From Girardia tigrina (taxonomy: Eukaryota): DNA of 52,891 nt. Numbering within the stretch: position 1 is the first letter of the stretch; each line of letters starts with the position of its first letter. Where the stretch lies: positions 1-52,891 of the forward strand of contig MQRK01214009.1 of the NCBI GenBank assembly GCA_001938485.1, given 5' to 3'. The notes under the pieces were generated by a model, which was not told the origin of the DNA, did not search any database, and saw only the letters and a list, made by a program, of their open reading frames with translations. This document shows positions 1-46,289 of this stretch, one piece after another. The position numbers and the translations under genes were made by a program.

Positions 1-673
1 GAGTTATTCGACTGTCTATTTTTTTCTTTACATTCTTCACGGAGCTTCTAGACACGCCAACAAGTTTGGCAATTTTATATTGTGAGTGATTTCCTGCTTT
101 TAAAAGTCCCCAAATCTGATCGACCTTCTTCGGAGAGAGATCCGAACTTTGACCCATCTAAAAATATTTAAATGCAATTAAATTTCACAGAAAACGTAAC
201 ATTTAATTAACTAGTATACGTATAAGTATGGACAATATCNNNNNNNNNNNNNNNNNNNNNNNNNNNNNNNNNNNNNNNNNNNNNNNNNNNNNNNNNNNNN
301 NNNNNNNNNNNNNNNNNNNNNNNNNNNNNNNNNNNNNNNNNNNNNNNNNNNNNNNNNNNNNNNNNNNNNNNNNNNNNNNNNNNNNNNNNNNNNNNNNNNN
401 NNNNNNNNNNNNNNNNNNNGTAATTAATAATAGCAATAATACAAATAACAACTTCTTAGATTTCATTAGCTAAGGTGCATTTAAATGTAAAAATAACGAT
501 TTTTCTTAGTGGGTCTAATAATATGGCCAAGTACTGTATTATCTAGTAGGAATTTCTAAAAAATCTATTTAAAAAATACAATTTAGCGAAAAAATTATTC
601 GCTTAGTATATATCGGTAACCCGATTAAGTACGTGAAGATTCAATCCCCAGGGAAAAGCGGCAATTATAAAAA

Positions 674-1620
674 ATTCAAATATTTGTTAAAATGTTAGCA
701 GGTAAAACCATAACGTTGGAGGTTGAATCCAACGACAAAATAGAGAACATCAAATCGAAGATTCGAGATAAGAAAGGCATTCCACCGGACCAGCAGAGAT
801 TAATATTCGCCGGGAAACAGTTGGAAGATGGTCGATTGAGCGATTACAACATCCAGAAGGAATCGACTCACCATTTAGTCTTACGTTTGTGTGGAGGAAG
901 TTCCGAGGAAGATAAGCAGTTGAACGATAAGTTGAACAAAAGAATGAGATGGAAACTTCAGATAAATAGTGCAAGGAAAGACCAGTATTTTAGTCATAAT
1001 GACGAAGAGTTCAAAATGCTGAACAAAAAATAAAGAGAAATATACGATGAGAATACAAATGAATATAGAATAATGATCAAGTTGGCTAGAAAACTCCAAA
1101 GAAAATAAGTGGACGAGTTGGGCAGTGAACTGAAACAGTTAGTGCTAGCCGATAAGGAAGTTGAAGATCACATGGAAAAAATAGAAGTAAATAAAATCGT
1201 TGAAAAAGGACAAGAGAAAGCTTCCAAAAACGAAATTGAATCGAAAGAAAGAGCTGATGATTTAGAGTAAAGATTAAAAGAAAATATTCCTATATCTGAA
1301 AAAAAATCAGTCAAATTAGGATAAAGATAGAATAAAACGAAAAGGAAGCATCTGATCTTTGTTTAAATTTTATAAAAGATTTAAAAGTTCTTAAACAGAG
1401 GATCGAAAGTGGTGAACATTAGGTTAATAAAGACGAAGAATTTTGGAACAAAACAAAATTATTTGAGAATTCAAAAATCGAAAAGTCGGCAACAGAGATA
1501 AATCAATTACAAAAAGTAATTTTAAATCAAATTAAAAATATTAAAGGCGAAAATGGAAATATTAAAATGGATAATATTAACATGACAAGAAAGTTTTTTC
1601 CGTTACTTTCCACTTATAAA
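674..1620 (+). pseudogene. Ubiquitin domain (674-898) fused in frame to a long K/E-rich coiled-coil region, interrupted by stops; probable retroelement accessory ORF relic
   Basis: Reads [18 protein letters not shown]...HLVLRLCGG, 63/76 identical to canonical ubiquitin by manual count (ATG>ATT at 674, T55 deleted, R74C). The same frame continues past TAA 1031 as REIYDENTNEY...VDELGSELKQLVLADKEVED...ERADDLE. The tail is not a ribosomal protein or another ubiquitin. Confidence 0.85.
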
Positions 1621-1867: not shown

Positions 1868-2491
1868 ATGGAGTTTTCAAAATCTAACAGTCGATTCTAT
1901 GCATACGTTGAGTGTTAAAATGGAATGACTGTAGATGAAACCTATAGAAAGTTGTTCAATGCGTTCCCTGATGATTGCCCAAAGGAACGCACAATAAGAA
2001 ACTGGTTCAAAGATCAAGAAATCGAAGATTTAACTAACAAACTGAGATATAGTGGTAAAATATACAATGATTTGTATTGTGAAAATACAGAGAAAATATC
2101 GGAATTGAACTCAGAAACGAAAATGTTAGAAAAAGAAATCGATATTCTAACAAATGAATCAGAATTGTCAATTGAAGATTGTGTCAAAATATGTGATGAG
2201 TTGGAGGAAACCAAAGTAATTTTAGAAAATAAAGAAGAAACACTTAAACAATTAGGAAAAAGTTTGAAAGAAAAAGAAAGTAAAATATTGAAACCGGAAA
2301 AACTAGCGCTCAAAGTAAAAGAAATAGAATATGAGAAAATTAGAAATCAAAAAGTGGAACCAAAACGATTTGATATATTATTGGAACGAACTTCGACAGA
2401 AAAGAAACTTGGTTCAGAAATAATTAAACAGTACAATATGTTGCGGTCGAGAATCAATTATAAGACAATAACACGCAATCCACAAATATAA
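1868..2491 (+). pseudogene. Mariner-type N-terminal HTH (1868-2014) joined in frame to an unrelated coiled-coil ORF
   Basis: MEFSKSNSRFYAYVEC*NGMTVDETYRKLFNAFPDDCPKERTIRNWFKD fits the mariner first HTH pattern (L..AF.D..P...TI..WF). After this the frame becomes an E/K heptad-rich sequence with no transposase motifs. Confidence 0.7.
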
Positions 2492-2569
2492 CATGCAGCA
2501 AACACAAAGAAAAAAGGCATTTAACAATATAATACATGTATTTGAGACTAATCAAAACATTACATGAAC

Positions 2570-4402
2570 CCTGAGATGATCTCCGATCTCCTTACAGGCC
2601 AGCGGAGCACTGAGGGCGCCGCACGAAAGCTAGAAACATAATATAAAGAAAATAGACAAAGTTGAATAAAAACCTACCCGATAACGGAAATCGAACAAAC
2701 GCCCCTCTACAGTTAGAAAATAGTAAGGCGCATCCGTGAAGGTGACCCACCGGAAGATTACATCATCTTGAGAGAATTTAGAAACCTTAAAAGAATAAAA
2801 GTTAATTAAAAACAAACCCAAAAAATGATAAAGTTCCGTACTGAGCTTCCCAGTAGACATAGGAGATCATCCAACCCTCTCCAAAGAGCTCTCCGTGAGC
2901 CGAGTCCATGACTGAGACCCACGAGATGATAACGCATTCCGGAGCCAAGATATAACCCCTGAAAGATTTAGAAATTAATTAAAAATATAAAGAAAATTAA
3001 TTAAGACTTACATGATTCATGCCCACAAAGAGAAAATAAAATCATGCGATGAATAAGCATTATTCATCAATGATAAAGCCGTCATTGTTTAGTGACGTAT
3101 TACCTAAAAATAGTAACGCCGACAAATTAGAATGAAAAATTAACAAATGAAAATGTAAAGTTACCAGTCCTGGCCAATCAGAAGGAGCCACGAAGAAAAT
3201 GTATCACTACGAGACAAATACTGTTATAAATACAACAGTAATTTCGATTAGAAACAGACGCAAATTAGAAACTAGAAATTAGAAATTGAGATTAAAAATT
3301 AAAAACTTAAGTGAAGTGAAAAGAAGACGTGAAGAAGTATTTTCGACATTTTGAGAAACAGTTTTGGGAATCTAAACATCCTTAATCGGAAATATTTGTA
3401 CCAGAAGTTAACGGAACAATTTGCAAGAGAAAATGATTAGCAATTTTCCTCCAGCGAGTATCAACATTGAATGTAAATTTTGTTATTGTAATTTTCATAT
3501 ATCCTAATATATGTATAGTATGAGAATTGCCTTGTTATTTATATAGTAAATAAATAAAATAATTTTAATAGAGACTAAGTTTAAGGTAAGGCAGTAAGCC
3601 AGTCCTCGTCGTTGACTGTTATTCCAGCCAACCATGTCCCGACTAGTTGACAAAGAATGTGTAGAACCCATGATTCCAGAGAGGAGGACGAGACTGCGCC
3701 TCTCGCAGCACGTGAAATGTCTTCATAAAGACTAATAATTGTTAGGAACGAGAGATAATCAATAAAAATTATGCTGCCAAACGCTTATGTTTTGACTGAA
3801 GATGTGAAATGAGATGAACTGAGTAGAAATAAAAAATGAATAATTGTGATACTGATAGATAGACAAGAGATAACTGACGCGAAATAAATTGATAATTCGA
3901 GAGAGTTAATGTAAATCTGTTGTTGATATAAATCTAAATGATATAAATCTAACTGATATAAATCTAAACGTTATAAATATAAATGGCGTGATATAAAATA
4001 AATTGATATACGATATACAATGATGCACAATAATATATAATAATGATGTTTTCATGAATTTAGACCAACCAGACACAACAGTGCCGCAAGTCTTAAATAT
4101 TACATAACAGTGCTTCAAGTTATAATCGTCGACACATTTTATACAGGCATGAGCGATGCATTCACTAGAGGAGAACATAACATGAAATCGACCCCCATCG
4201 ACACTGATCTAGGCCTCTGATCTATGGGGGCCTATATCCCGTCCTGTCTTTAACCGAACCCGCAGGCCCTCGGAGCTTGGCACTGCTAGCCAGATGTCAA
4301 GTAAGGAGAGGCGTCCGACCCGTGTACAATCAAACATATTACAGAGAATAAGTGAATAAATTCATAAAATAACATTTGGTTGTGGTTGACCCTTAATAAC
4401 CA
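2570..4402 (+). mobile_element. Long LTR-like sequence (at least 1.8 kb; left boundary uncertain)
   Basis: Non-coding, with degenerate internal repeats (2570-3000), CCAAT and TATA boxes, AATAAA near 3550 and 4355, and a 15-bp tandem GATATAAATCTAAxT near 3925-3985. It ends in ...TAACCA immediately before a tRNA-Pro PBS. Confidence 0.6.
3172..3232 (+). promoter_or_regulatory. CCAAT box plus TATA box (putative LTR U3 promoter)
   Basis: GGCCAATCAG at 3172-3181 and TATAAATA at 3225-3232, in canonical order and spacing. Confidence 0.55.
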
Positions 4403-4403
4403 C

Positions 4404-4421
4404 TGGGGGCTCGTGAGATTT
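4404..4421 (+). other. Primer-binding site complementary to the tRNA-Pro 3' end
   Basis: TGGGGGCTCGT-GAGATTT versus canonical PBS-Pro TGGGGGCTCGTCCGGGATTT: 11 exact nt, then a 2-nt deletion. It lies one base after a CA dinucleotide. Confidence 0.75.
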
Positions 4422-4447
4422 CGAAAATGTTCTAACTCGAGAGGGTC

Positions 4448-5130
4448 ATGACAAATAAAAAGAAAAAAATTGGTTAAAAGCGAAAGAACAAAAAATGAAT
4501 TAAGGATCTTTTCTGCAGAAGCAATAGTAAGCGATATGTTGAAAGAGAAACAAGAATCGAGAGAAGAAGTTCAAAAAGAAATAATGTGGGAAAAAAGATG
4601 TGAGACTTTTGGGAACAAAAATAAAAGAGAAATCGAAAATTCTCAATGTTTGAAAAAGTTTTTGACGTTAAATGTTCAAGACGAGCCGCAGTTGAGTCGC
4701 TTCAAAATGAATATGAAAGCCATTGAGCGAAAAGAAGAAATTATTACTTTGAAGAGTAATGTGATGGTTTATCCGCTAGACAGAGGCGGTTTGAAAGTGA
4801 AAGATCATCAAAATAGTGTAATTGCAAGAGAATATTTGATAAAGGACATATAAATCAATTGGATAAACCGATGGGTTGAAATTGCTAAACTTGGAACTCC
4901 ATCAGATGCCCTGGAAAATTCAAAGTCAATTGTTATTGGATTAAAACATTGGAAATCGAGAAAGAAAAATGATCCAATGTATCGAAAGATAGAGAATTAG
5001 AAGAGGACAAAGAAAAAGAATGGAGTGATCCAAATAATTGACAGTTGGAAAAAGAGAAAGAAAAAGCAGGATAATTCCACAAGAAGAACCACTTAATCTC
5101 AAAACAAAGGTTCTTTATAATTGCCAATGA
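4448..5130 (+). pseudogene. Decayed K/E-rich ORF internal to the LTR element
   Basis: ORF 4470-4853 plus frameshifted charged continuations, lying between the PBS and PPT; no recognisable domain. Confidence 0.4.
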
Positions 5131-5302
5131 GAAGAATAGTGTAAATAAATTTGTACAAATATGTACTAATAATAAGTTGGTTGCTAAAAAAGTTTTTGTT
5201 GATAAAGTGATAGTTCTTTCGTGATGAAAATACGGTTATAGTTTTGCTAATTGTTGGCCAGGTAATTTTCTAGAGAGAAATAAAAGGCTTAATGATTCGG
5301 TC

Positions 5303-5315
5303 AAAAGGGGGAGAA
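5303..5315 (+). other. Polypurine tract of an LTR retrotransposon
   Basis: AAAAGGGGGAGAA followed by TTTGG, which could be a mutated TGTGG LTR start. Confidence 0.55.
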
Positions 5316-5718
5316 TTTGGAGAGGAAATTAATCGGTTTGGCCGAACATTTTGCTTGTTTAGCAAAATTCATAAATAAATTATATAATTAATAAAAAATA
5401 ATTAAATTAAATAATTAAAAGTAATATAAATTAAATAATTAAAATAATAAAAAGACCTTACAAAGAAAAATTAAATTAAATAAATTGAATTTTTTGTACG
5501 TGCGGTTTGTTATTTGCAATTTGTCTGTGAATGATTTTTGTTGTAAATAGTATAAAGTTGTCAATGAATAGTTGATTCATTCTTGAGTTTTGTTTGAATG
5601 GATCAATTGGTAAATTTGTGTGTGTGACTGAGTTGACACAATTTTGAAAAACAATTTAAAAATAAACGTTTGAACTTCTTTTCTGGCTTATTTCTGAATA
5701 AAAATAAAAAGTCTGAAT

Positions 5719-6088
5719 TTGAAATTTGACCGATTTTCAAACTATTATGATACATTGGTAAAAGAAAACAAGCTCCATTTTGCTGTTAAATCGAACAATT
5801 TATTGAATGTGTTGAAATATCTCGAGAAATACTCGAAACAAAACAGCCGATCGTCATCGTCCACTAAATCCAAGAAACTCGATCTCGATTATCGCAATAA
5901 TCACTGATTCCCATATTTACTGCCATCACTGACTTCACTTGAAGCTGAAATTGAAGCGTTCAATAAAAACCGAGAATTCGAAAAGTCAGTGATGTCTGAT
6001 TTTGAATTAAAAAAGGCTAAAGAAGATAAAACTCAAAAAAAATTTTGGAATCGGCCCAAAAAGGCAAAGACAAATTAAAATCTGAAAT
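5719..6088 (+). pseudogene. Unidentified host-like coding relic, truncated by a gag fragment
   Basis: The frame continues through a single TGA (5905) as FPYLLPSLTSLEAEIEAFNKNREFEKSVMSDFELKKAKEDK. Composition switches abruptly at about 6089. Confidence 0.4.
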
Positions 6089-6830
6089 TTGTAACTTTTC
6101 GTATGGTGTGTGGTGTGCCAGTAATTGCGGCAAATGTTTCTGGAGGGTTGTTAATTGCCCTGATGGAATGGATGTCAACAACTCGTGGAAGAGGTCCAGT
6201 TGCCCGCTAATGTACATGGATCTTAGTTTGAAATCCATGACGTCTAACCAGAGTTGTGGTGATCCCGTTTCGTCCTCGAAGTATGAAATGAACCTTTTAG
6301 TCGTGGGTATCACTGACGGAAGCTGTGAAGAAAGGTTCGAAATCGGTGTCACGCTTGTTTCTTGTTTGTCAATCGGTATTGGTCCCGATCCGTTTGTGTC
6401 GGACGATGAATCTGACCCAACATGTTCTGTAGTTTCAGTTGAGTTCGCATTCGCCTTGGCGTGTGAGCAAGCATGGGGGGGTGTCGTTGCGGTACCTTTT
6501 TCGGAGGTTTGCCCCCTGCCAGTGGGATGTGACTTCATAGTGTTGTGTCGTTCACAATGTTATAATCTGATCACGTTTTCTGGGGTCTGAGCGGCTTGAA
6601 CCCGCGATACAGTGTGACCATGTGGCCGGTTGTACTGGCGATGTGATCCAATGTTAGTGAAATTGTTTCATTAATGTTGACTGTCTCGTAAAGGTGAGTT
6701 TCACCCGTGACGGTGATGCGTATGTTCCGTGACTCTTGTTCCCTATCGGGATAGCGTATGTTGGTTGTGTTCGTTTTGTGTTCTCCGAAAGCTACGTGGT
6801 CTTTGTGTAGTAGTGAAGTGTCACTTGAGA
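6089..6830 (-). mobile_element. Gypsy-type gag N-terminal fragment with upstream leader
   Basis: SPQLWLDVMDFKLRSMYI...FHELLTSIP...TPYEKL resembles the P.LW...F..LL..LP...PY..L gag N-terminal pattern; GC content is elevated. Confidence 0.5.
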
Positions 6831-6946
6831 TGTTTTTATGTCTTTTTGTGAGATTTAATATACATTTACGAAAAATAATTTAAAAAGTTTTAATAAGACC
6901 ATTATGTGTCACAGCAAAATATAGATATAAAATCATAATCATAATA

Positions 6947-8270: not shown

Positions 8271-9834
8271 GGCTTGTATTTTTTCGCTAAGTATTTTAAT
8301 AAAATGCTAACTTTTTTTTAAAAAATGCTAAGTTATTTAATAAAATGCTAAGTTTTTATTTTAAAAATGCTAAGTTTTTTAATAATGCTGTTGGGGTTCC
8401 AAAATTCATTTTTTAAAAGAAAATTATTTTTGTATTTCGAGAGTCAGATAAAAAAGAATTGAATAAACAAATAATTTGAATTCCCAAAGCCGAAATGATT
8501 AAAGCTCAGGTTCTATTCATAAAGTCACAAAAATTCAAAACACAATGAAAATATAATTCTTTATTAAAACCGATTTAATTCAATCATTGAGCAGTGCTCT
8601 GGAAGTTTTCTTTGACCTTCCACGCCTTCTTTTTCCCCAATGGGCACTTTTTTTGCTGCGGGAGGTGCAGATTAGAGCTTCAAGCGTATAGCAAGTCCTA
8701 AAAGATGCTTACAGACAAAACATTTAAGAAAATATGGATAAGTGCATGAACCAGTATGCCAATTTTCATTGTTTCGTGGACGAATTACAAACCAAACAGT
8801 AAAAGCCTTTACTTTAAAGTCATCAAAAGTTGACCATCTCACCTCCTCGACAATTTTAATTTCATCATCAGTAACACTTTGCTTATGAGCTGTAGGAACA
8901 GAATATATAAATTCAAATTCTGTTTCTCTAATGCTAATATCTTTGTTCATTCTGACCCACTGATATGCTGTCGTCCATTGTTCTAAAGATGGTTCTGTTT
9001 TTTCAAAAAAGATTTTATCTTTATCCTTTTACAGATTAGATCATCTTTTGATTGAAGTTAATGAAAGTTCCATAAATCTTCCTAGTGGATACCTTTCTCT
9101 GAACGTATCTTCGTTTTTAATGACATTATTAAATGATTCTAGTGCATTATTTGTAGAAGGTGTTCTTTTCTTTACACTTTCATACCAATTTGAATGACTA
9201 GAGAACCATCCAGAACTAAACATATAATCGATGAAGCCTTGCCAATTTCTCCATTTTATGATAAAGCATTCCATTGCTTTATAAAAAATTTCTGAATTTG
9301 AAGAAAGCTGAAGCATATCAATATCTTCCATTACGACTGTCTGAAGTCTCTTATTTGTCAAAAGATGCACATGCTTCGCTGTATTTCTTCGCATGTGAGC
9401 CCAACACATCACCAGAAGCTTATCCACTCCAAATACATCCAAGAATGCATTTCGAATGACATTCGATACATCTGAAATTAAACACCTATAATAAACTTTC
9501 TTCCCGTCTGCAGTCTGGTTTTTATAGTGATAGGCTAGCCACTGTTCTAAATTTATAGTAGCAACAGCTTCCGTCTTATTCGCGAAATATGGGATTCTCA
9601 TATCAATTATATAAACAATTTTTTTAAAAGGTTTTTAAAATTTTTTTTAAATGCTAAAAAATAATTTAAAAATTTTAAAAAATTAATTACTTAGTATTCT
9701 ATTAAATAACTTAGTATTGTTATTAAAAAAAACTTAGCATTTTAATAAATAACTTGACATCTTTTTAATTAACTTAGCATTTTTAAAATAAAAACTTAGC
9801 ATTTTATTAAAAACTTAGCAAATATATATACCTG
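8271..9834 (-). mobile_element. Mutator-like (MULE) DNA transposon, internally deleted
   Basis: Long TIRs built from AAAATGCTAAGT sub-repeats; the 9-mer TTTTAACAA flanks both ends (8262-8270, 9835-9843). Confidence 0.85.
8583..9601 (-). pseudogene. MULE transposase with SWIM zinc finger
   Basis: LISD...IRNAF...MCWAH, STNNALESFNNVIK, degenerate SWIM CTYPYFLKCFVCKH and basic tail KRRRGR. There is a stop at 9041, and the region with the first catalytic Asp appears deleted after VYYRC. Confidence 0.85.
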
Positions 9835-27709: not shown

Positions 27710-28479
27710 ATGGCATTATTTTCTCCGACAAATCAAAAGCGATTGACAAATGTTTCCGATGTGAAATTAATCGTAAAAACCGATAGAAAGCGTCAGCGAT
27801 TTGAAACAGCGTATTATCCGAATAAAGTGATCGTTTGGCGACAAAAACTTGAATTTCAAATTCAAACTCTGCAAAATGAGCTGATTTTCACGAATGTGTC
27901 GAAAGCGGAAATCGTGAGCAAACGCAATAAAATAATTGAAAGACGCTTTTCAAACGACGAATATTTTGGATATTTGTAAAATTATATTGGAGAATGCAGA
28001 GCTCCAATTGAGGGACAAAAAGAGACAATTTGGGATGGATAATTTAATTAAAGATGTCACAAAAATTCTGACTAGTAAAACGTTGAATCCGAGTACAAAA
28101 CTATGCTTTCCACCGGGTGGGATAAAGAAAATGATTCACGATTGTCACATCAATTTGAAACCGAATAAATCTACAAAACAACAATCTCTCGACGTTATTC
28201 GAATGTTGATAAAGAAATTGAATGTGCAGATTGATGTCGCTCTTTCATCTGTCAACATTATTGTGACACGAAAACAAATTAAATCAATCAGACGAGAATT
28301 ATTGTGAAAATATTTTCTCAGAGTTGCCACAAGAGCACGATTTAAAGATGGAGGCGATTTTCGATCCGAAAAATTATGATTTATTCAAAGAAAATTTCAA
28401 AACGAATTGCACAATCGAATTACACAAAAATGCAACAACAATAATTCGATTAAAAACGGTTCCAAAATTTATTATTTAA
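27710..28479 (+). pseudogene. SBDS: Intronless SBDS/Sdo1 ribosome maturation factor pseudogene
   Basis: MALFSPTNQKRLTNV...RFETAYYPNKV..WR...IFTNVSK; after a frameshift near 27930, AFQTTNILDICKIIL...NPSTK...KPNKSTKQQSLDVIR; TGA at 28305; second frameshift to IFDPKNYD...IEL. Confidence 0.9.
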
Positions 28480-39905: not shown

Positions 39906-40390
39906 TATTTCTTAGTGCTATTTCATTTTTTGATATTTCTTTTCTTATGTTTTCTTTCTTTATCAAGACTTTATCCCAACTTGAAAAATTTGATTTGTCT
40001 GTACTATATTTTTGGTCTTTTCTTTCCTGACCTTCTCTTCATTAGTATTTTTCCACCAATGTATTAACTTCCTGCTAAATATTATTTCCACTGATGAGAC
40101 ACCTATGGTAGCTTAAATTTGTGCTATTTAACATAAATTCTACCTCTTACAAAATTTTCTTCCAGTCTTTGTGAGTTTCAGATTTCATTCTTATATACAT
40201 GGTGTCTCATTTTGTTCTGAATTGTCACTCCACGATCTTGTTGGTATTGTAGTGGTAGGGACTAGAATATACAATTTCAACTTTAAATTTATTAACTGTA
40301 TCTTTAAAAAAGTACTGATACGATGATATGGAAAGCCATAAAGACCTTAAACATGAACCTCCATTCGTTCTACATAAATAACAGCAACAA

Positions 40391-42258
40391 ATGGAGATCG
40401 AAACGACAAAATCCGACCAATTTGCCGGGAATGGTTACTGGATTGCCAACAACATCTACCAAATAGTCAATAATGGAAACATTAATGAAGACAACAGAAA
40501 CACTGTTTGGGAGCTGTCAAAAAAGAGAAAGTACAACAAACTCTCTGCGCACCCAATAGTGGTCCGGAAAAAGACAGAGCGAAATCAAACTTATCATGAC
40601 AGACTATCAGCAGCAGAAGACTTCCTGAAATCCGTCACTAATAAACCAATTGGAGACTTTTCAGAACAATTCCAACAATTTATTCTACAGAAACAGAAAA
40701 AGAGCCGTAAAAAGCCATATAAAAGAAGAATCGGTAAAGACAAAGGTAAAAACGACAAATACCTCCATATCAGGTACAAAACCGATGCAAAGAAGGTAAT
40801 AGAAATAATCCTATCAGATTCAAAGGTGAATACGTTCCCACCTATCGAAAAGATACAGGAATACGGACAGACAAAGGTACGTGATCCCCTTGTAACTAAT
40901 CGAACAAGGACCAGAATTTGGGTTCAAGAAAATAACAGAGGCAGAAATATTGTCGGTTTTGCTAAAGATGAAAAAAATCTAGCCCTGAGAAATCGAATAT
41001 TACATACAAAGACATCGAATACTGTGATCCTAGCGTCTGTATCCTTCCAAAACTATTTGAAAAGATACTGGATAGCAATGAAATACCGAAAAATTGTGGT
41101 GAATTTATAACAATCCTCATACCAAAACCAGGAAAAGACGGTAAATACGAAGAGGTGTCATCCTGGAGACCAATTACACTATTAGAATGCATCTACAAAG
41201 TTTTTGCGTCTTGCCTGACAGCTCAGCTTGAAAAGTGGTTGATGGAAAATGACCTAATTTTCCCGCTTCAAAAGGGCACAGGAACATCTGATGGATGCGC
41301 AGAACACAATAATTTGCTAAGAATCATTCTTGAAGAACTAGACGAAGTTTATGTCGCCTTCCTGGATCTCCCAGATGCATTCAGTAGAATGCCCATCGCC
41401 CATGTGAGGGAAATACTGCGAAGAAAAGGGATTAATACAAAATCCTGCGACTTGATACGACAAATCTACGCCGAAAACACATTAGAGTATTCCTGTAATG
41501 GTAGATCAATACCAGCTATACCGATCAACAGAGGAGTCCGACAAGGATGTCCACTCTCAATGCTCCTCTTCAATGTCGGTATTGATCCAATCCTGTCTGA
41601 AATCCACAGCTCCCAGGACTCTGGAATACGAATCAAAGAATGCAAAATCTCCTGCCTTGCTTATGCCGATGATATTACGTTAATATCCAACGCGCATGAA
41701 GGCCTCCTGGAAATTGTCAACAATGCCTTCAAATGGGCCTCTTGGACATCAATGACCTTCAACCCAAGCAAATCCGGCTACCTGTTAACAACTGTGAAAA
41801 GCAGAAAAATCTACACCAATGGAGAAGAAATCTTGATAGTTGACGATGAAAAGGGATACAGATACCTTGGAGTGGATTTTATAAGAAAGACAAAAAGTTC
41901 TCCAACTGAGCTATTCAAAAGTATCATAAAAAATATGAAAAAGATAGCTAAATCCTCACTTGATCCAGTGCAAAAGATTGACGCTTACAAAACATTCATT
42001 TACTCGCACATAATCTTCTCATTTCGGAATTACAACATACCGAATAGAGAGCTGCCTAATTAAGGTCATGCTGAAAAAAAAGACAAGACATTTGTCAACG
42101 ATCTAGACAGGAGATCAGCAAATTAATAAAGCCTATATGCGGACTCCAGCCAACAGCATCCAACGACTACCTATATGCTGGAAAAGAATAAGGCGGATTT
42201 GGACCTGTGACGAATACGCCATGCAATCCATCATACAGGCGTTCAGGAACCTGACTTA
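40391..42258 (+). mobile_element. Non-LTR retrotransposon of the restriction-like endonuclease group (R2/NeSL/Utopia-like), RT region
   Basis: WRPITL...YKVF, LQKG...DGCAEHN, AFLDLPDAF, GVRQGCPLSMLLFN, LAYADDI, YRYLGV; frameshifts upstream and downstream. Confidence 0.9.
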
Positions 42259-42259
42259 A

Positions 42260-44314
42260 GAAGATATGGGTGTTGCTGAACTTACACTAATCAATCTAGA
42301 CGATGACTTCCCTACGGAAATTGCTCTTGATGAAATTGCTGCAGCTAATGAAGAACAAGACGAAGATGAAGAGATCAACACAGTCTCAGATAATTTATCA
42401 AGTGATGATGATGAAGAATTAGACTCAAGCATTTTATAAGTAAGATCAGAGGAAGGTTCAAGTGTCGAGGAAGAAGAGGATGTTTAGCTTGCAACTCCAT
42501 GACTTCAAGCTTCTAGTAGTTTGCAATGGATACTGCAAACAGATCAGGCACATCCTCCAGGTAGAGTAGCAGCACAGAACATATTTCGTGTACCAAATGT
42601 TAGTCTGGCAGTAGGATTTCATCCTAACTCAAGTTTGGAAGCCTTCAAAGCATTTTTCGGAAACTGTCTAGATGAGGCTCTTTTATACACCAATCGTGAA
42701 GGTCACCGAATAGCTGCTGCTAAACGTGTCACTTGGAAATCTGTGTCTGTTGTATAATTTGATGCCCTTATTGGCTTCAGTTCATTGCGGGAGCCTTGAA
42801 AGCGTGTCACATAGATACTCGTGAATTATGGGATTTGAAGAATGGAAACCCTACTTTTCGTACGACAATGAGCTTTCAACGTTTCCAATAGATACAGACT
42901 GCTCTGAGATTTGACAAAAAGACTGCGCTGATCCATTAGCCCCAATTCGAAAAATAGTTGAACTATTCAATCAAAACTTGAAAGTGCTTTACATCCATGG
43001 TTCACTTTTAAGCATAGATGAGTAACTTGTAGAGTTCCAAGACCGAGTGCGCTTTCAACAATGTATTCCTAGCAAACCCGGCAAGTTCGGAATAAAAGTT
43101 TTTTGGATAACCGACACTGAAAACAGTTTTCCCCTTCGTTGTGTCATCTACGTTGGAAGAGATACGATTCCGGAAGATGAACGAGATGTTCCTCTTAGGG
43201 AAGCTATGGTAATTCATCTGTCTAAGAACTATCTAGGAGCAGGACAAAATATCACGATGGATAATTGGTTTTCGTCTGTAAATCTGTCTGATCGCCTTGA
43301 AGCTTCTCAGACCAGCATGGTTGGAACAGTCCGTAGCAGCAGAAGGGATATACCGCCGGCTGCTAAATCAGTTCAAGGAAGGGCAAAGATGGACTCGCGG
43401 CATTATTTGGCTGGCAACAAAGTGCTCTGCTCTTGCTGGGACAAAGTAAAAGCTCCAGTTCTTCTTCTCTCCACCAAATATTCCACTGGACGACACACTG
43501 CAGGGTTGAAGCCAGAAATTGTAGACTGCTACAACACGACGAAGTCAGGCATGAACAACTTAGAAAAGTTAGTTCGCACCTTTTGCAGCCAAAGGAAGTG
43601 CCACAGGTGGCCTTACAGCATCTTTATTACTCTCGCAGATGTCACTGTCATCANCCGCCATGAAAGCCAGGGCTGCCTCCGACCAGTATCCCTACAAAAG
43701 AGACTTGGGATATAATCTGACTCTTCCACTTGTTCGCCAACGCTCCCAGAAACGTCATCTGACAAGGGCTATCAAAATGGCTGTTCGCTTGGTTGGTGTA
43801 GAAGCAGTGCATAAAGACAACCATGGAGCTAATGCTGACAAGCATGGGCGACAACGCTGTGAGATCTGCCGGGGCGCATGAGTCAAAGATTGCAAAACCC
43901 GCTTCAGGTGTGCAGAATGTGCCAAAGCAATTTGTTTGGGATATGCGGAAACAGTGCATTACTGTCCCGACTGTAGGCGCTTACTGTTGAATTAATTTTA
44001 TGACATTCTACATGCATTTGACTGTTTTTTCTTATCCTAAATGTTCAATTACTTGGAAACAATAAACCATAAAACACAGTAATTTTGTGTAATTTATGAT
44101 TCTTCTTGTATTTTGGACTTCTAAAATCATAAATAAACATGTCATACTACTTGGAATAATTAGTAGTATAATTCGAATGACAAAATGAAATTACAAAATA
44201 ATATATATACAAACACTAGATGAAAGTCACTAATATCCATAACTTATACCCATGGGTCTGGCCAGACCCAGGTTCATAATTTACTTAGTATCAAATTGAA
44301 ACATCGTTTAACGG
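42260..44314 (+). mobile_element. piggyBac element (PGBD4-like transposase pseudogene), left end missing
   Basis: Acidic N-terminus, IDE*LV, PSKPGKFGIK, ITMDNWFSS, VGTVRSSR, YNTTKSGM, C-terminal Cys cluster; subterminal palindrome TGGGTCTGGCCAGACCCA; end CGTTTAACGG|TTAA. Confidence 0.92.
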
Positions 44315-44357: not shown

Positions 44358-45756
44358 TGACTGTCACCACAGAACAAACACCCCCAAAAGTACCTTCATT
44401 TTCATTTCTATTTAATCCTAATCAAAATGAAAAAAAGTAATGTTTATTCTTTCGCTGAAAGGTTTAGGTTAAATAGCTACAGAAACAAGCTGGAATTATT
44501 TTCCAATGTAGAAATGTGTGAGATACAAAATTGTATAAATCGAGATCCATATTCATTACCTCCTGAAAATGATTATTGCATCCAATACAATCGTTAAACA
44601 AAGTTTTTATAATTTCTTTATATTCATTTTCTGGATGTTATCAATTGTTTCTGCAAAAGTTACACTCTTATTTCAACGTATCTGGCAGTACATTTGTTGC
44701 TGGACATGATGTTATCAAACTTACAAACTCATCAGTAATCACTGTTCTGAATGAAATAATTATAAAGATTTTTACTAGTGATACATCCTTGGAAATGCAA
44801 AACACGTTTCAATATTTGGCAAAGAACTGGAGTCAAGAATTCTCTAGAACGGTGACTTTATCGAATACATTTGCGGACAACTTTTGTCCAAAAAACGTTT
44901 TCCAAATGTGGAATATTTCTTCTTTATACAATATTGCATATAATAACTCCGGTCAAACTCCTCTTTTCTTCTGTAACAATAGCAATATGATCACAGATTC
45001 TCGATCGTGTTACTTGACCGTTTATTTAATAATAAATGACGACTCTAAAGTGTCTAAATTTATCGAAGAACAAAACAGTCAAAACGATTCGTCATTCATG
45101 TTTTATAATAATTCAATTACTATTAAAAAGATTTGTGTTAGAGATCAACGAGTTTATTTAGACAATTCAAATATAAGATTCTTTGCTGACGGAGACTTCT
45201 GGATCACGACAATATTGATACCGATCTCAATTGTCGGACTGTTAGTAGTTATCGTAACGTACTCCATACATCGACAGTTGCATACCCTTCCAGGGTTGAT
45301 GGTCTTGTCAATGAGTACTTTCTTATTATTCACATATATTGGTTTTATAATAATTGCATTTCGAAATAATAATACCTACGACTGTTACTGGATTCTAATA
45401 ATAACTCACTTCTTTTTATTATCATATCTCTTCTGGATGATGTCCATTGCAATAATATCTGCAAAGACCTTTGCGTCAAAAAATACTACAAACAAAAAAT
45501 CAAGACATTCGTATCGAACATGTGGCTATATTTGTATATTCATTGTTGGATGCGTGGTAGTTTTCTGGTTACCAGGAATAATAAACTTTGGATGTGGTAA
45601 AATATGTTTGAGTTGGATCCCAGTTTTATATGGTGAAGTCCCTAATTGTTGGTTGAGCGGCTCATTCTCCATAATATATGGTGTTTCTGTACCGGCTGCT
45701 ATCACGTTCTTTGTTTCACTTGTGTCCCTCATTTCTGCCATTCTGGGGCTCTACAA
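44358..45756 (+). pseudogene. Methuselah/adhesion-like (family B, 7tm_2-type) GPCR: ectodomain plus TM1-5; partial gene or young pseudogene
   Basis: 400-aa ORF with TYSIHRQLHTLPGLMVLSM, C....I.THFFLLSYLFWM, YG..PNCWL and YGVSVPAAI. Donor AA|GTACGT at 45757. The upstream PSFSFLF exon joins via a possible intron 44437-44482 but needs one frameshift near 44590. Confidence 0.8.
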
Positions 45757-46289
45757 GTACGTTGAAATAGTTGCTTAAGAACATTTTTTAAGTAATAACT
45801 TTTCACATAAAACTAATCAAATATTTGCTTTACAAAACAATTGAAAATCTTTTTTGTCAAAAATTTTTTTATTATCAAATTTTTTTTAAATTAATCTTTA
45901 GCAATTTCAGTTTTAAAAACCATTAAACTTATTAAAAGGAATTACTTAAAGTAAAATATAATTCCATAATTATGTCAAAAATATTTTAATTTAAGATTTT
46001 AAGGATTGCTTTGAGTTTACCCTGTGACTCACTCATTAATGAACGTTTCAACCCCCTGAATAATATAATTGAATAAGTCTTCCCAATATAAAATGTTTAT
46101 CAAAATCGTCATATATGTTTGTACATTTAACATATTTTATATATTTTATATATTTTTTATAATTAGAAATTATTATCCCGTCTGACGAACCTTTCTTTAT
46201 GCGGTCATGTTCATACTAAAGACTATTAATTAAGATGTATACATATATTATCTAAATATAATAAAATACTTAATCTTCCATATTAATAC

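Follow-up and report, generated by a model that had tools for sequence, protein, structure and literature searches.

A ubiquitin-GG domain ahead of Gag in BEL/Pao retrotransposons of Girardia tigrina may be a processing site for host deubiquitinases

The stretch of Girardia tigrina DNA analysed here (contig MQRK01214009.1, 52,891 nucleotides, henceforth the window) carries a dead, non-autonomous element of the BEL/Pao lineage in which a ubiquitin domain ending in GG continues directly into Gag. The lineage is, with near certainty, one of BEL/Pao LTR retrotransposons, and comparison of its copies and relatives makes it probable that host deubiquitinases (DUBs) cleave behind the GG and so give the freed Gag a fixed N-terminus, which is the best model that we have for this arrangement.

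The ubiquitin of the window copy is intron-free, is identical to the host's own ubiquitin at 64 of 75 aligned residues, matches Pfam PF00240 with an E value of 6e-24 and retains I44, K48, K63 and the terminal GG, in agreement with a previous sequence-only reading of this DNA. That reading gave the C-terminus as LRGG, which is LRLCGG in the window copy. It also had the domain run into at least 140 codons of coiled coil. A K/E-rich helical tail is indeed fused to the ubiquitin in frame, but the frame stays open for only 44 codons past GG (stops at 1031, 1106 and 1268 are followed by a frameshift), and the first ~90 codons after GG are not generic coiled coil but the N-terminal helices of a BEL Gag. 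Another stop codon lies just 5′ of ubiquitin codon 1. The parts of the element and the sequences that interrupt it are listed below.

608-673, plus strand: remnant of the element's leader, common only to the nearest copy (C167126), without an Hsp90 fragment and with a stop at 668-670.
674-898, plus strand: ubiquitin domain of 75 codons, with ATT at codon 1, codon 55 missing and the ending LRLCGG (GG is 893-898).
899-1175, plus strand: BEL/Pao Gag N-terminal helices, directly after GG, with stops at 1031-1033 and 1106-1108 that break the frame.
1176-1576, plus strand: part 1 of the coiled-coil filler of the non-autonomous form, with the stop at 1268 and the frameshift.
1577-2007, no strand assigned: not of the element; a mariner-type HTH fragment (HTH_48, E 9e-6), an AT microsatellite and an assembly gap.
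2008-2438, plus strand: part 2 of the coiled-coil filler.
2439-4453, no strand assigned: foreign 2015-base repeat with TG...CA ends and a 4-bp AATA duplication.
4454-5302, plus strand: remainder of the filler frame and the element's 3′ untranslated part.
5303-5315, plus strand: polypurine tract.
5318-6081, plus strand: the element's own 3′ LTR, which matches sequence 5′ of ubiquitin in other copies and is 90% identical to the nearest copy.

The earlier view of this locus as a decayed retroelement is supported, and the element's own 3′ LTR begins at 5318, behind the polypurine tract. The copy is without its 5′ LTR, the capsid part (DUF1759) and the Hsp90 fragment that most copies carry at the leader position; segment 1577-2007 stands in place of ~570 bases that the nearest copy has, and the 3′ LTR is interrupted at 6081 by another insertion (6017-6880), whose minus-strand frame is Gag-like by eye and has no Pfam match. 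Since the window copy is 93% identical to the nearest copy, as compared with LTR pairs that are 98-99% alike in two other copies, it is older than the youngest family members.

The LTR (2570-4402) and PBS that were at first ascribed to the element lie inside the separate, later-inserted repeat 2439-4453, which is probably a solo LTR of another family. Position 2438 joins straight to 4454 in six other copies (three loci and three contigs), 36 of 39 other matches to the repeat start at 2433-2442 at its left junction, 33 of 40 stop at 4453-4459 at its right junction, and in other copies of the repeat, too, the 'PBS' at 4403 lies within it. The LTR 2570-4402, between matches to which linkage of ubiquitin with gag and pol had been anticipated, belongs to another element. 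The repeat is present in high copy number (3440 first-look candidates), and a TGGGGGCTCG motif lies within it, 50 bases from its end. The loci read showed no internal region next to it, and no tRNA was found in the window. Elsewhere in the window, long terminal inverted repeats at 8277-9828 enclose a transposase-like frame (9041-9634) that is MULE-like by eye and has no Pfam match; an intron-free SBDS-like fragment of 123 codons (PF09377, E 3e-16) lies at 27936-28307; a reverse transcriptase of the LINE type and part of a piggyBac-type transposase occupy 40382-42063 and 43026-43715; and a 401-codon open frame at 44573-45778, a secretin-family 7TM receptor (E 2e-4), is the likeliest host gene.

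The junction of ubiquitin and tail is a family trait. A DNA search returned 369 candidates, of which 40 were scored and all 40 matched; a protein search returned 472, with matches in all 150 of those scored. Both parts are present in all 30 fetched loci. This multicopy junction rules out a chance fusion of a ubiquitin pseudogene and settles in favour of a family the question of whether the junction was unique to this locus. The intact ATG expected at the start of ubiquitin, on the other hand, occurs in none of the 30 loci: 25 have ATT in register, three have it one base off and two do not reach this codon. The ATT start and the missing codon 55 are subfamily traits, common to the subfamily of the window copy (subfamily A, see below).

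In fuller copies, the order of parts is LTR-leader-(Hsp90 fragment)-Ub-GG-Gag-PR-RT-RH-IN-LTR, where the Hsp90 fragment is not universal. Past the tail, these copies, but not the window copy, encode DUF1759 (E 5e-11 and 2.5e-13), a pair of CCCH fingers and an aspartic protease (DUF1758, E 2e-4, marginally below the cut-off). In C175082, ubiquitin and HSP90, CCCH, RVT_1, Peptidase_A17, rve (E 6e-4, below the curated cut-off) and DUF5641 lie between LTR pieces that are 99% alike, giving the pol order PR-RT-RH(Peptidase_A17)-IN-DUF5641; stops and frameshifts are found in this copy as well. C231707 has paired TG...CA LTRs with pieces 98-99% alike, a 5-bp duplication ATCAT and a coiled coil in place of RT. 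LTR-bounded copies are ~6-8 kb long, and a PBS-like 18-mer occurs 131 times.

BEL Gag usually carries Cys/His knuckles, which are present in the relatives P0121-P0123. This cluster was not found in the element; the two CCCH fingers, which P0125 also has, occur instead and are the sign of a variant BEL/Pao lineage, all other hallmarks examined having been found. In alignments with BEL Gag, the sequence behind GG corresponds to its N-terminal helices, and several relatives without ubiquitin (P0122, P0144 and P0152) begin ~3-17 residues before the GG-equivalent point by a rough profile estimate; GG sits about where an ordinary BEL Gag begins. A non-autonomous form (L085, L112) consists of Gag-PR followed by a coiled coil that replaces RT just past an FW-E motif. 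The same form is seen in P0125, where the filler is a CFAP58 fragment (E 2e-18); the coiled-coil filler of the element itself matched no Pfam family.

Ubiquitin had been regarded as a simple N-terminal leader with its own ATG. As judged from the reading frames, it is usually internal, with a frame that opens upstream in most copies. A fragment of the Hsp90 middle domain, 86-91% identical in DNA to one host paralogue (eight copies compared), lies in frame ahead of ubiquitin in most A and B copies, and deletions of 8 and 11 codons within this piece preserve the frame. The frame 5′ of the Hsp90/Ub junction is open for at least 150 codons in 9 of 36 copies and in 0 of 36 in either other frame, a count in which 15 of the 36 copies are cut short by gaps or ends and which is partly circular because 85 codons derive from host coding sequence. 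In P0278, a single 616-aa frame runs from an RPB10-derived Met through a PBS-like site, Hsp90 and ubiquitin into Gag.

In P0278, L079:360-3104 and L111:7382-8362, a single frame opens within the LTR and continues past the PBS-like site as far as the Hsp90 fragment. An RPB10-derived piece stands at the start of two of these frames, and the LTRs differ in the host-like pieces that they carry. Such multi-gene captures in the leader fit template switching as portrayed in PMC5131818. The Hsp90 fragment is shared by subfamilies A and B and by P0135, whose Gag is only 28% identical, and has an omega of ~0.35; it may be more than a passenger. RNA contigs suggest that the leader and Gag are joined in transcripts: contigs of one metatranscriptome library (X2) bridge both the Hsp90/ubiquitin and the ubiquitin/Gag junctions, and a contig of X7, whose RNA status is a guess, bridges the latter. 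These are contigs that carry no level, start or strand and might derive from library DNA, and hence they count as weak support.

The copies fall into three subfamilies. Subfamily A, that of the window copy, has the ATT start and lacks codon 55; the ubiquitin of subfamily B is near-perfect; that of subfamily C is identical to host ubiquitin at 33 of 76 positions and still matches PF00240 with an E value of 7e-16. Linkage to RT was seen in B and C copies and in no A-type copy read. GG survives at 14 of 19 A loci, in 39 of 40 B rows (39 places) and at 27 of 30 C loci; these 89 junction rows may still include duplicates created by assembly, since collapsing removed identical ones alone. Residue 74, the P3 position of a cut after GG, is the canonical Arg in P0124 and in 12 of 19 A loci, with Cys in another five; Cys prevails in B (38 of 40 rows) and C (29 of 30 loci). 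Pro directly after GG is absent from all 89 rows and from six proteins outside the genome. The residue that a cut would expose varies (S, G or M, and N in 7 of 19 A loci). The exposed residue is thus not always Ser, the stabilising N-end residue that had been foreseen, and a conserved N-end-rule purpose is unsupported.

Outside the genome, ubiquitin precedes Gag in 4 of 153 BEL Gag relatives (P0124, P0135, P0163 and P0209, the last with a partial domain, E 2e-4). A fifth protein, P0125, has a bare LKGG motif at its very start, and a sixth, P0278, carries ubiquitin before Gag. Five of the six come from JGI or ENA contigs. Their Gag identities to subfamily B are 92% for P0278 and 54, 27, 28, 28 and 30% for the other five (28% for P0135), and the tail endings are LRGG, LYGG, LRGG, LKGG, LKGG and LCGG. 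The ubiquitin of P0278 is of A type, whereas its Gag is of B type; the subfamilies therefore recombine. A homologue search with the ubiquitin-containing frame gave only polyubiquitins among the 120 matches listed, and a metagenome scan with P0135, the matches of which were swamped by polyubiquitin-type sequence, found Gag in 0 of 80 loci.

A quick tree of the Gag core was built from 185 columns and 147 of 164 rows. In it, 129 rows that lack ubiquitin form a branch with an SH-aLRT of 98, and all seven labelled rows lie outside of this branch; they have long branches and need four changes. One origin of ubiquitin-bearing Gags and several origins both fit this tree. L73, G75 and G76 are the same in all eight ubiquitin domains that were compared, and the three subfamilies and the outside proteins all keep L-x-G-G, while L8, R42, I44, K48, H68, V70, R72 and R74 vary. 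Subfamily C, P0163 and P0209 have fallen to ~43-52% identity to ubiquitin with L-x-G-G still at the same place, and in subfamily C the I44 patch is eroded (L8S, R42C, H68D, V70M).

Pairwise omega among natural copies (with intervals from codon bootstraps only and with pairs that share branches) is 0.21 (0.14-0.31) for the ubiquitin of B, 0.41 (0.30-0.59) for A and 0.37 (0.22-0.65) for C. Between A and B it is 0.12 (0.07-0.19), or 0.20 (0.11-0.34) for codons 46-76 alone; within C, the interval for these codons reaches 1.14. Elsewhere in the element, omega is 0.15 for the capsid, 0.30 for the protease, 0.57 for the C-terminal tail and 0.81 (0.59-1.24) for the coiled coil. As neutral drift in simulation yields 0.45-0.85 across all settings, or 0.55-0.85 when the transition bias is closest to the observed one, the ubiquitin behaves like a core gene, with a constraint (0.21) comparable to that of the protease, and the coiled coil is near neutral, like filler. 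A caveat to this comparison is the similarly low omega (~0.35) of the Hsp90 fragment, which is treated here as a passenger.

Half of the subfamily-B ubiquitin appears to have been re-captured from host polyubiquitin mRNA. Its 5′ half is near unit 1 of the host tri-ubiquitin (pS 0.20), and its 3′ half is nearer to A (pS 0.36) than to the host unit (pS 0.55). With a host-like 5′ half, some of the low omega reflects constraint on the host gene and not selection on the element. One host unit matches the B ubiquitin at 89-92% identity, and sequence similarity makes the first unit of the host tri-ubiquitin L125 the likely donor. The host tri-ubiquitins L125 and L129 (C137650 and C179109) are GC3-rich and have a short CGTESGW tail; a similar spacing is seen on C203341 and C234766, and a separate AT-rich di-ubiquitin group exists in the genome.

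The polyproteins of LTR retrotransposons are normally taken to be cut by their own aspartic protease. Linear Ub-GG-X fusions, such as polyubiquitin and ubiquitin-ribosomal protein precursors, are processed by DUBs, many of which read the I44 patch, and Ub-Pro resists their cleavage. We propose the following model for the maturation of Gag. Translation would start upstream, in some copies inside the LTR, and run through the leader into the ubiquitin-GG, which is placed in frame where Gag begins. A host DUB would then cut after GG, freeing Gag with a fixed N-terminus and insulating it from the pieces of host mRNA that the leader collects. The ubiquitin would occasionally be renewed by template switching to host polyubiquitin mRNA. 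Taken as a whole, the proposition that an old BEL/Pao lineage has outsourced its first Gag maturation step to host DUBs, with the leader as a cargo bay and a cassette that is periodically renewed, is in our judgement evenly poised.

DUB cleavage is the best explanation because the features that stay constant are those on which a DUB depends, namely P4, P2 and P1 and the lack of Pro at P1′, and because they lie at the expected start of Gag, after a translated leader that varies. The sequences, together with a predicted model of P0124 (18-row alignment), present a ubiquitin fold that ends in an exposed L-x-G-G without Pro at P1′. In this model, the ubiquitin fold has a pLDDT of ~90 and an rmsd of 0.6 Å over 74 residues, and is followed by a GG linker of low confidence, then by three long helices and a capsid-like region that is also helical; searches with predicted folds were dominated by ubiquitin and barely probed the Gag part. 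The frames scanned contained no DUB domain, and the enzyme would therefore be the host's. DUBs are strict at P1 and P2 and wide at P3 and P4, and UCH-L3 prefers Arg at P3, with natural LRG substitutions cutting activity 20-50 fold (10.1101/2020.01.30.926881). The Cys at P3 in most copies here should slow cleavage.

It is this Cys74, along with the eroded I44 patch of subfamily C, that keeps alive a rather unlikely rival, in which the ubiquitin has a function but is not removed, or is removed only slowly, serving as a tag for folding, trafficking or turnover, with Cys74 protecting it from DUBs. The fixation of Cys74 in B and C, the reduced activity of some DUBs on P3 substitutions (10.1101/2020.01.30.926881), the retention of the whole ubiquitin fold and the age of the Hsp90 fragment ahead of it, which is also found in P0135, would all suit such a tag. 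Nevertheless, it is the binding surface (L8, I44, V70 and K48) that varies and the cleavage determinants L73, G75 and G76 that do not, three outside lineages besides P0124 keep R or K at P3, and GG would have no evident use in a domain that is never cut. More doubtful still is that the ubiquitin is a passenger, one of several abundant host mRNAs (RPB10, Hsp90, ubiquitin) template-switched into the leader, with Gag made from its own downstream Met. Re-copying of the host gene would then account for the conserved look. LTR elements commonly capture host mRNA, in many cases in frame (PMC5131818), the Hsp90 piece and the B ubiquitin are as close to their host counterparts as described above, and the host Hsp90 and ubiquitin contigs are far deeper than the element in run X1. 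Against this, L-x-G-G is still in place in subfamily C, P0163 and P0209 after so much drift; there is no conserved Met after GG, and the coiled coil, a captured-looking region of the same elements, is near neutral.

Release by a host DUB thus remains our preferred reading, and the idea from which the analysis started, that of a fragment of a giant Gypsy-group Burro element with a long LTR, has almost nothing left in its favour. Burro1 does carry a Ubi2/SUMO-like domain in its interior, as well as a coiled coil of Smc type, but this domain lies between MATH and BCL-2 and after a retrotrans_gag/CCHC Gag (PMC6431247; PMC13465017 concerns the IAP region of Burro1). The domains linked to ubiquitin here are those of BEL/Pao (DUF1759, DUF1758, Peptidase_A17, DUF5641), the size is 6-8 kb and the long repeat is a later insertion. 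In the frames scanned, we found neither a Gypsy-type Gag (retrotrans_gag and CCHC) at the N-terminus nor Pfam matches to the MATH, BIR, BCL-2, ankyrin or env-like domains of Burro's region of up to 25 kb. The linked BEL/Pao domains refute the Burro/Gypsy identity, Burro having been compared by description only.

If the model is true, the host ubiquitin system would directly control a retroelement via its Gag. The model also suggests why these elements tolerate many in-frame host fragments. Tests of DUB specificity could draw on the natural range of ubiquitin tails (LRGG, LCGG, LYGG, LKGG) and I44 patches found here. For annotation, the hundreds of 'ubiquitin' and 'Hsp90' matches in this genome are parts of retroelements, not host genes. 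The lineage is apparently undescribed: we found no description of ubiquitin-Gag BEL elements or of ubiquitin-GG processing in retrotransposons in our literature searches, and the text of PMC6338049, which deals with accessory domains, does not contain the word 'ubiquitin'; the elements may be catalogued in Repbase, Dfam or GyDB, though not under this interpretation.

With BEL/Pao elements (Belpaoviridae), the element shares the order of DUF1759 Gag, DUF1758-like protease, RT, Peptidase_A17, integrase and DUF5641, the TG...CA LTRs and the 5-bp duplication; it differs in placing ubiquitin-GG before Gag, in its translated leader and in having two CCCH fingers, not Cys/His knuckles. Burro/GYPSM1 likewise has an LTR polyprotein with a ubiquitin-like domain and host-derived pieces, but belongs to another superfamily, exceeds 30 kb and carries the domain internally, and the part of PMC6431247 consulted describes no GG processing site. 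LTR-mediated retroposition (Tan et al. 2016, PMC5131818) also brings several pieces of host mRNA into LTR elements, in sense and in frame, but its products are young chimeras that disrupt the element, whereas selection acts here on one captured piece, in copies that have pol as well. Host ubiquitin precursors are linear Ub-GG-X fusions too, with the difference that the C-terminal partner here is a retroelement Gag and that residue 74 is often not Arg.

The closest likeness is to cytopathic pestiviruses (BVDV Osloss, CP1 and CP Rit), in which captured host ubiquitin, with other sequence ahead of it, immediately precedes a protein whose N-terminus must be exact; these insertions release NS3 even when the ubiquitin is N-terminally truncated and lies behind an S27a fragment (PMC8310069). 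The pestiviral fusions are sporadic variants of RNA viruses whose cleavage has been demonstrated, whereas here the fusion is a fixed and old trait of a retroelement for which cleavage is predicted. If that prediction is true, the BEL/Pao elements would hold a lasting and independent version of the pestivirus trick.
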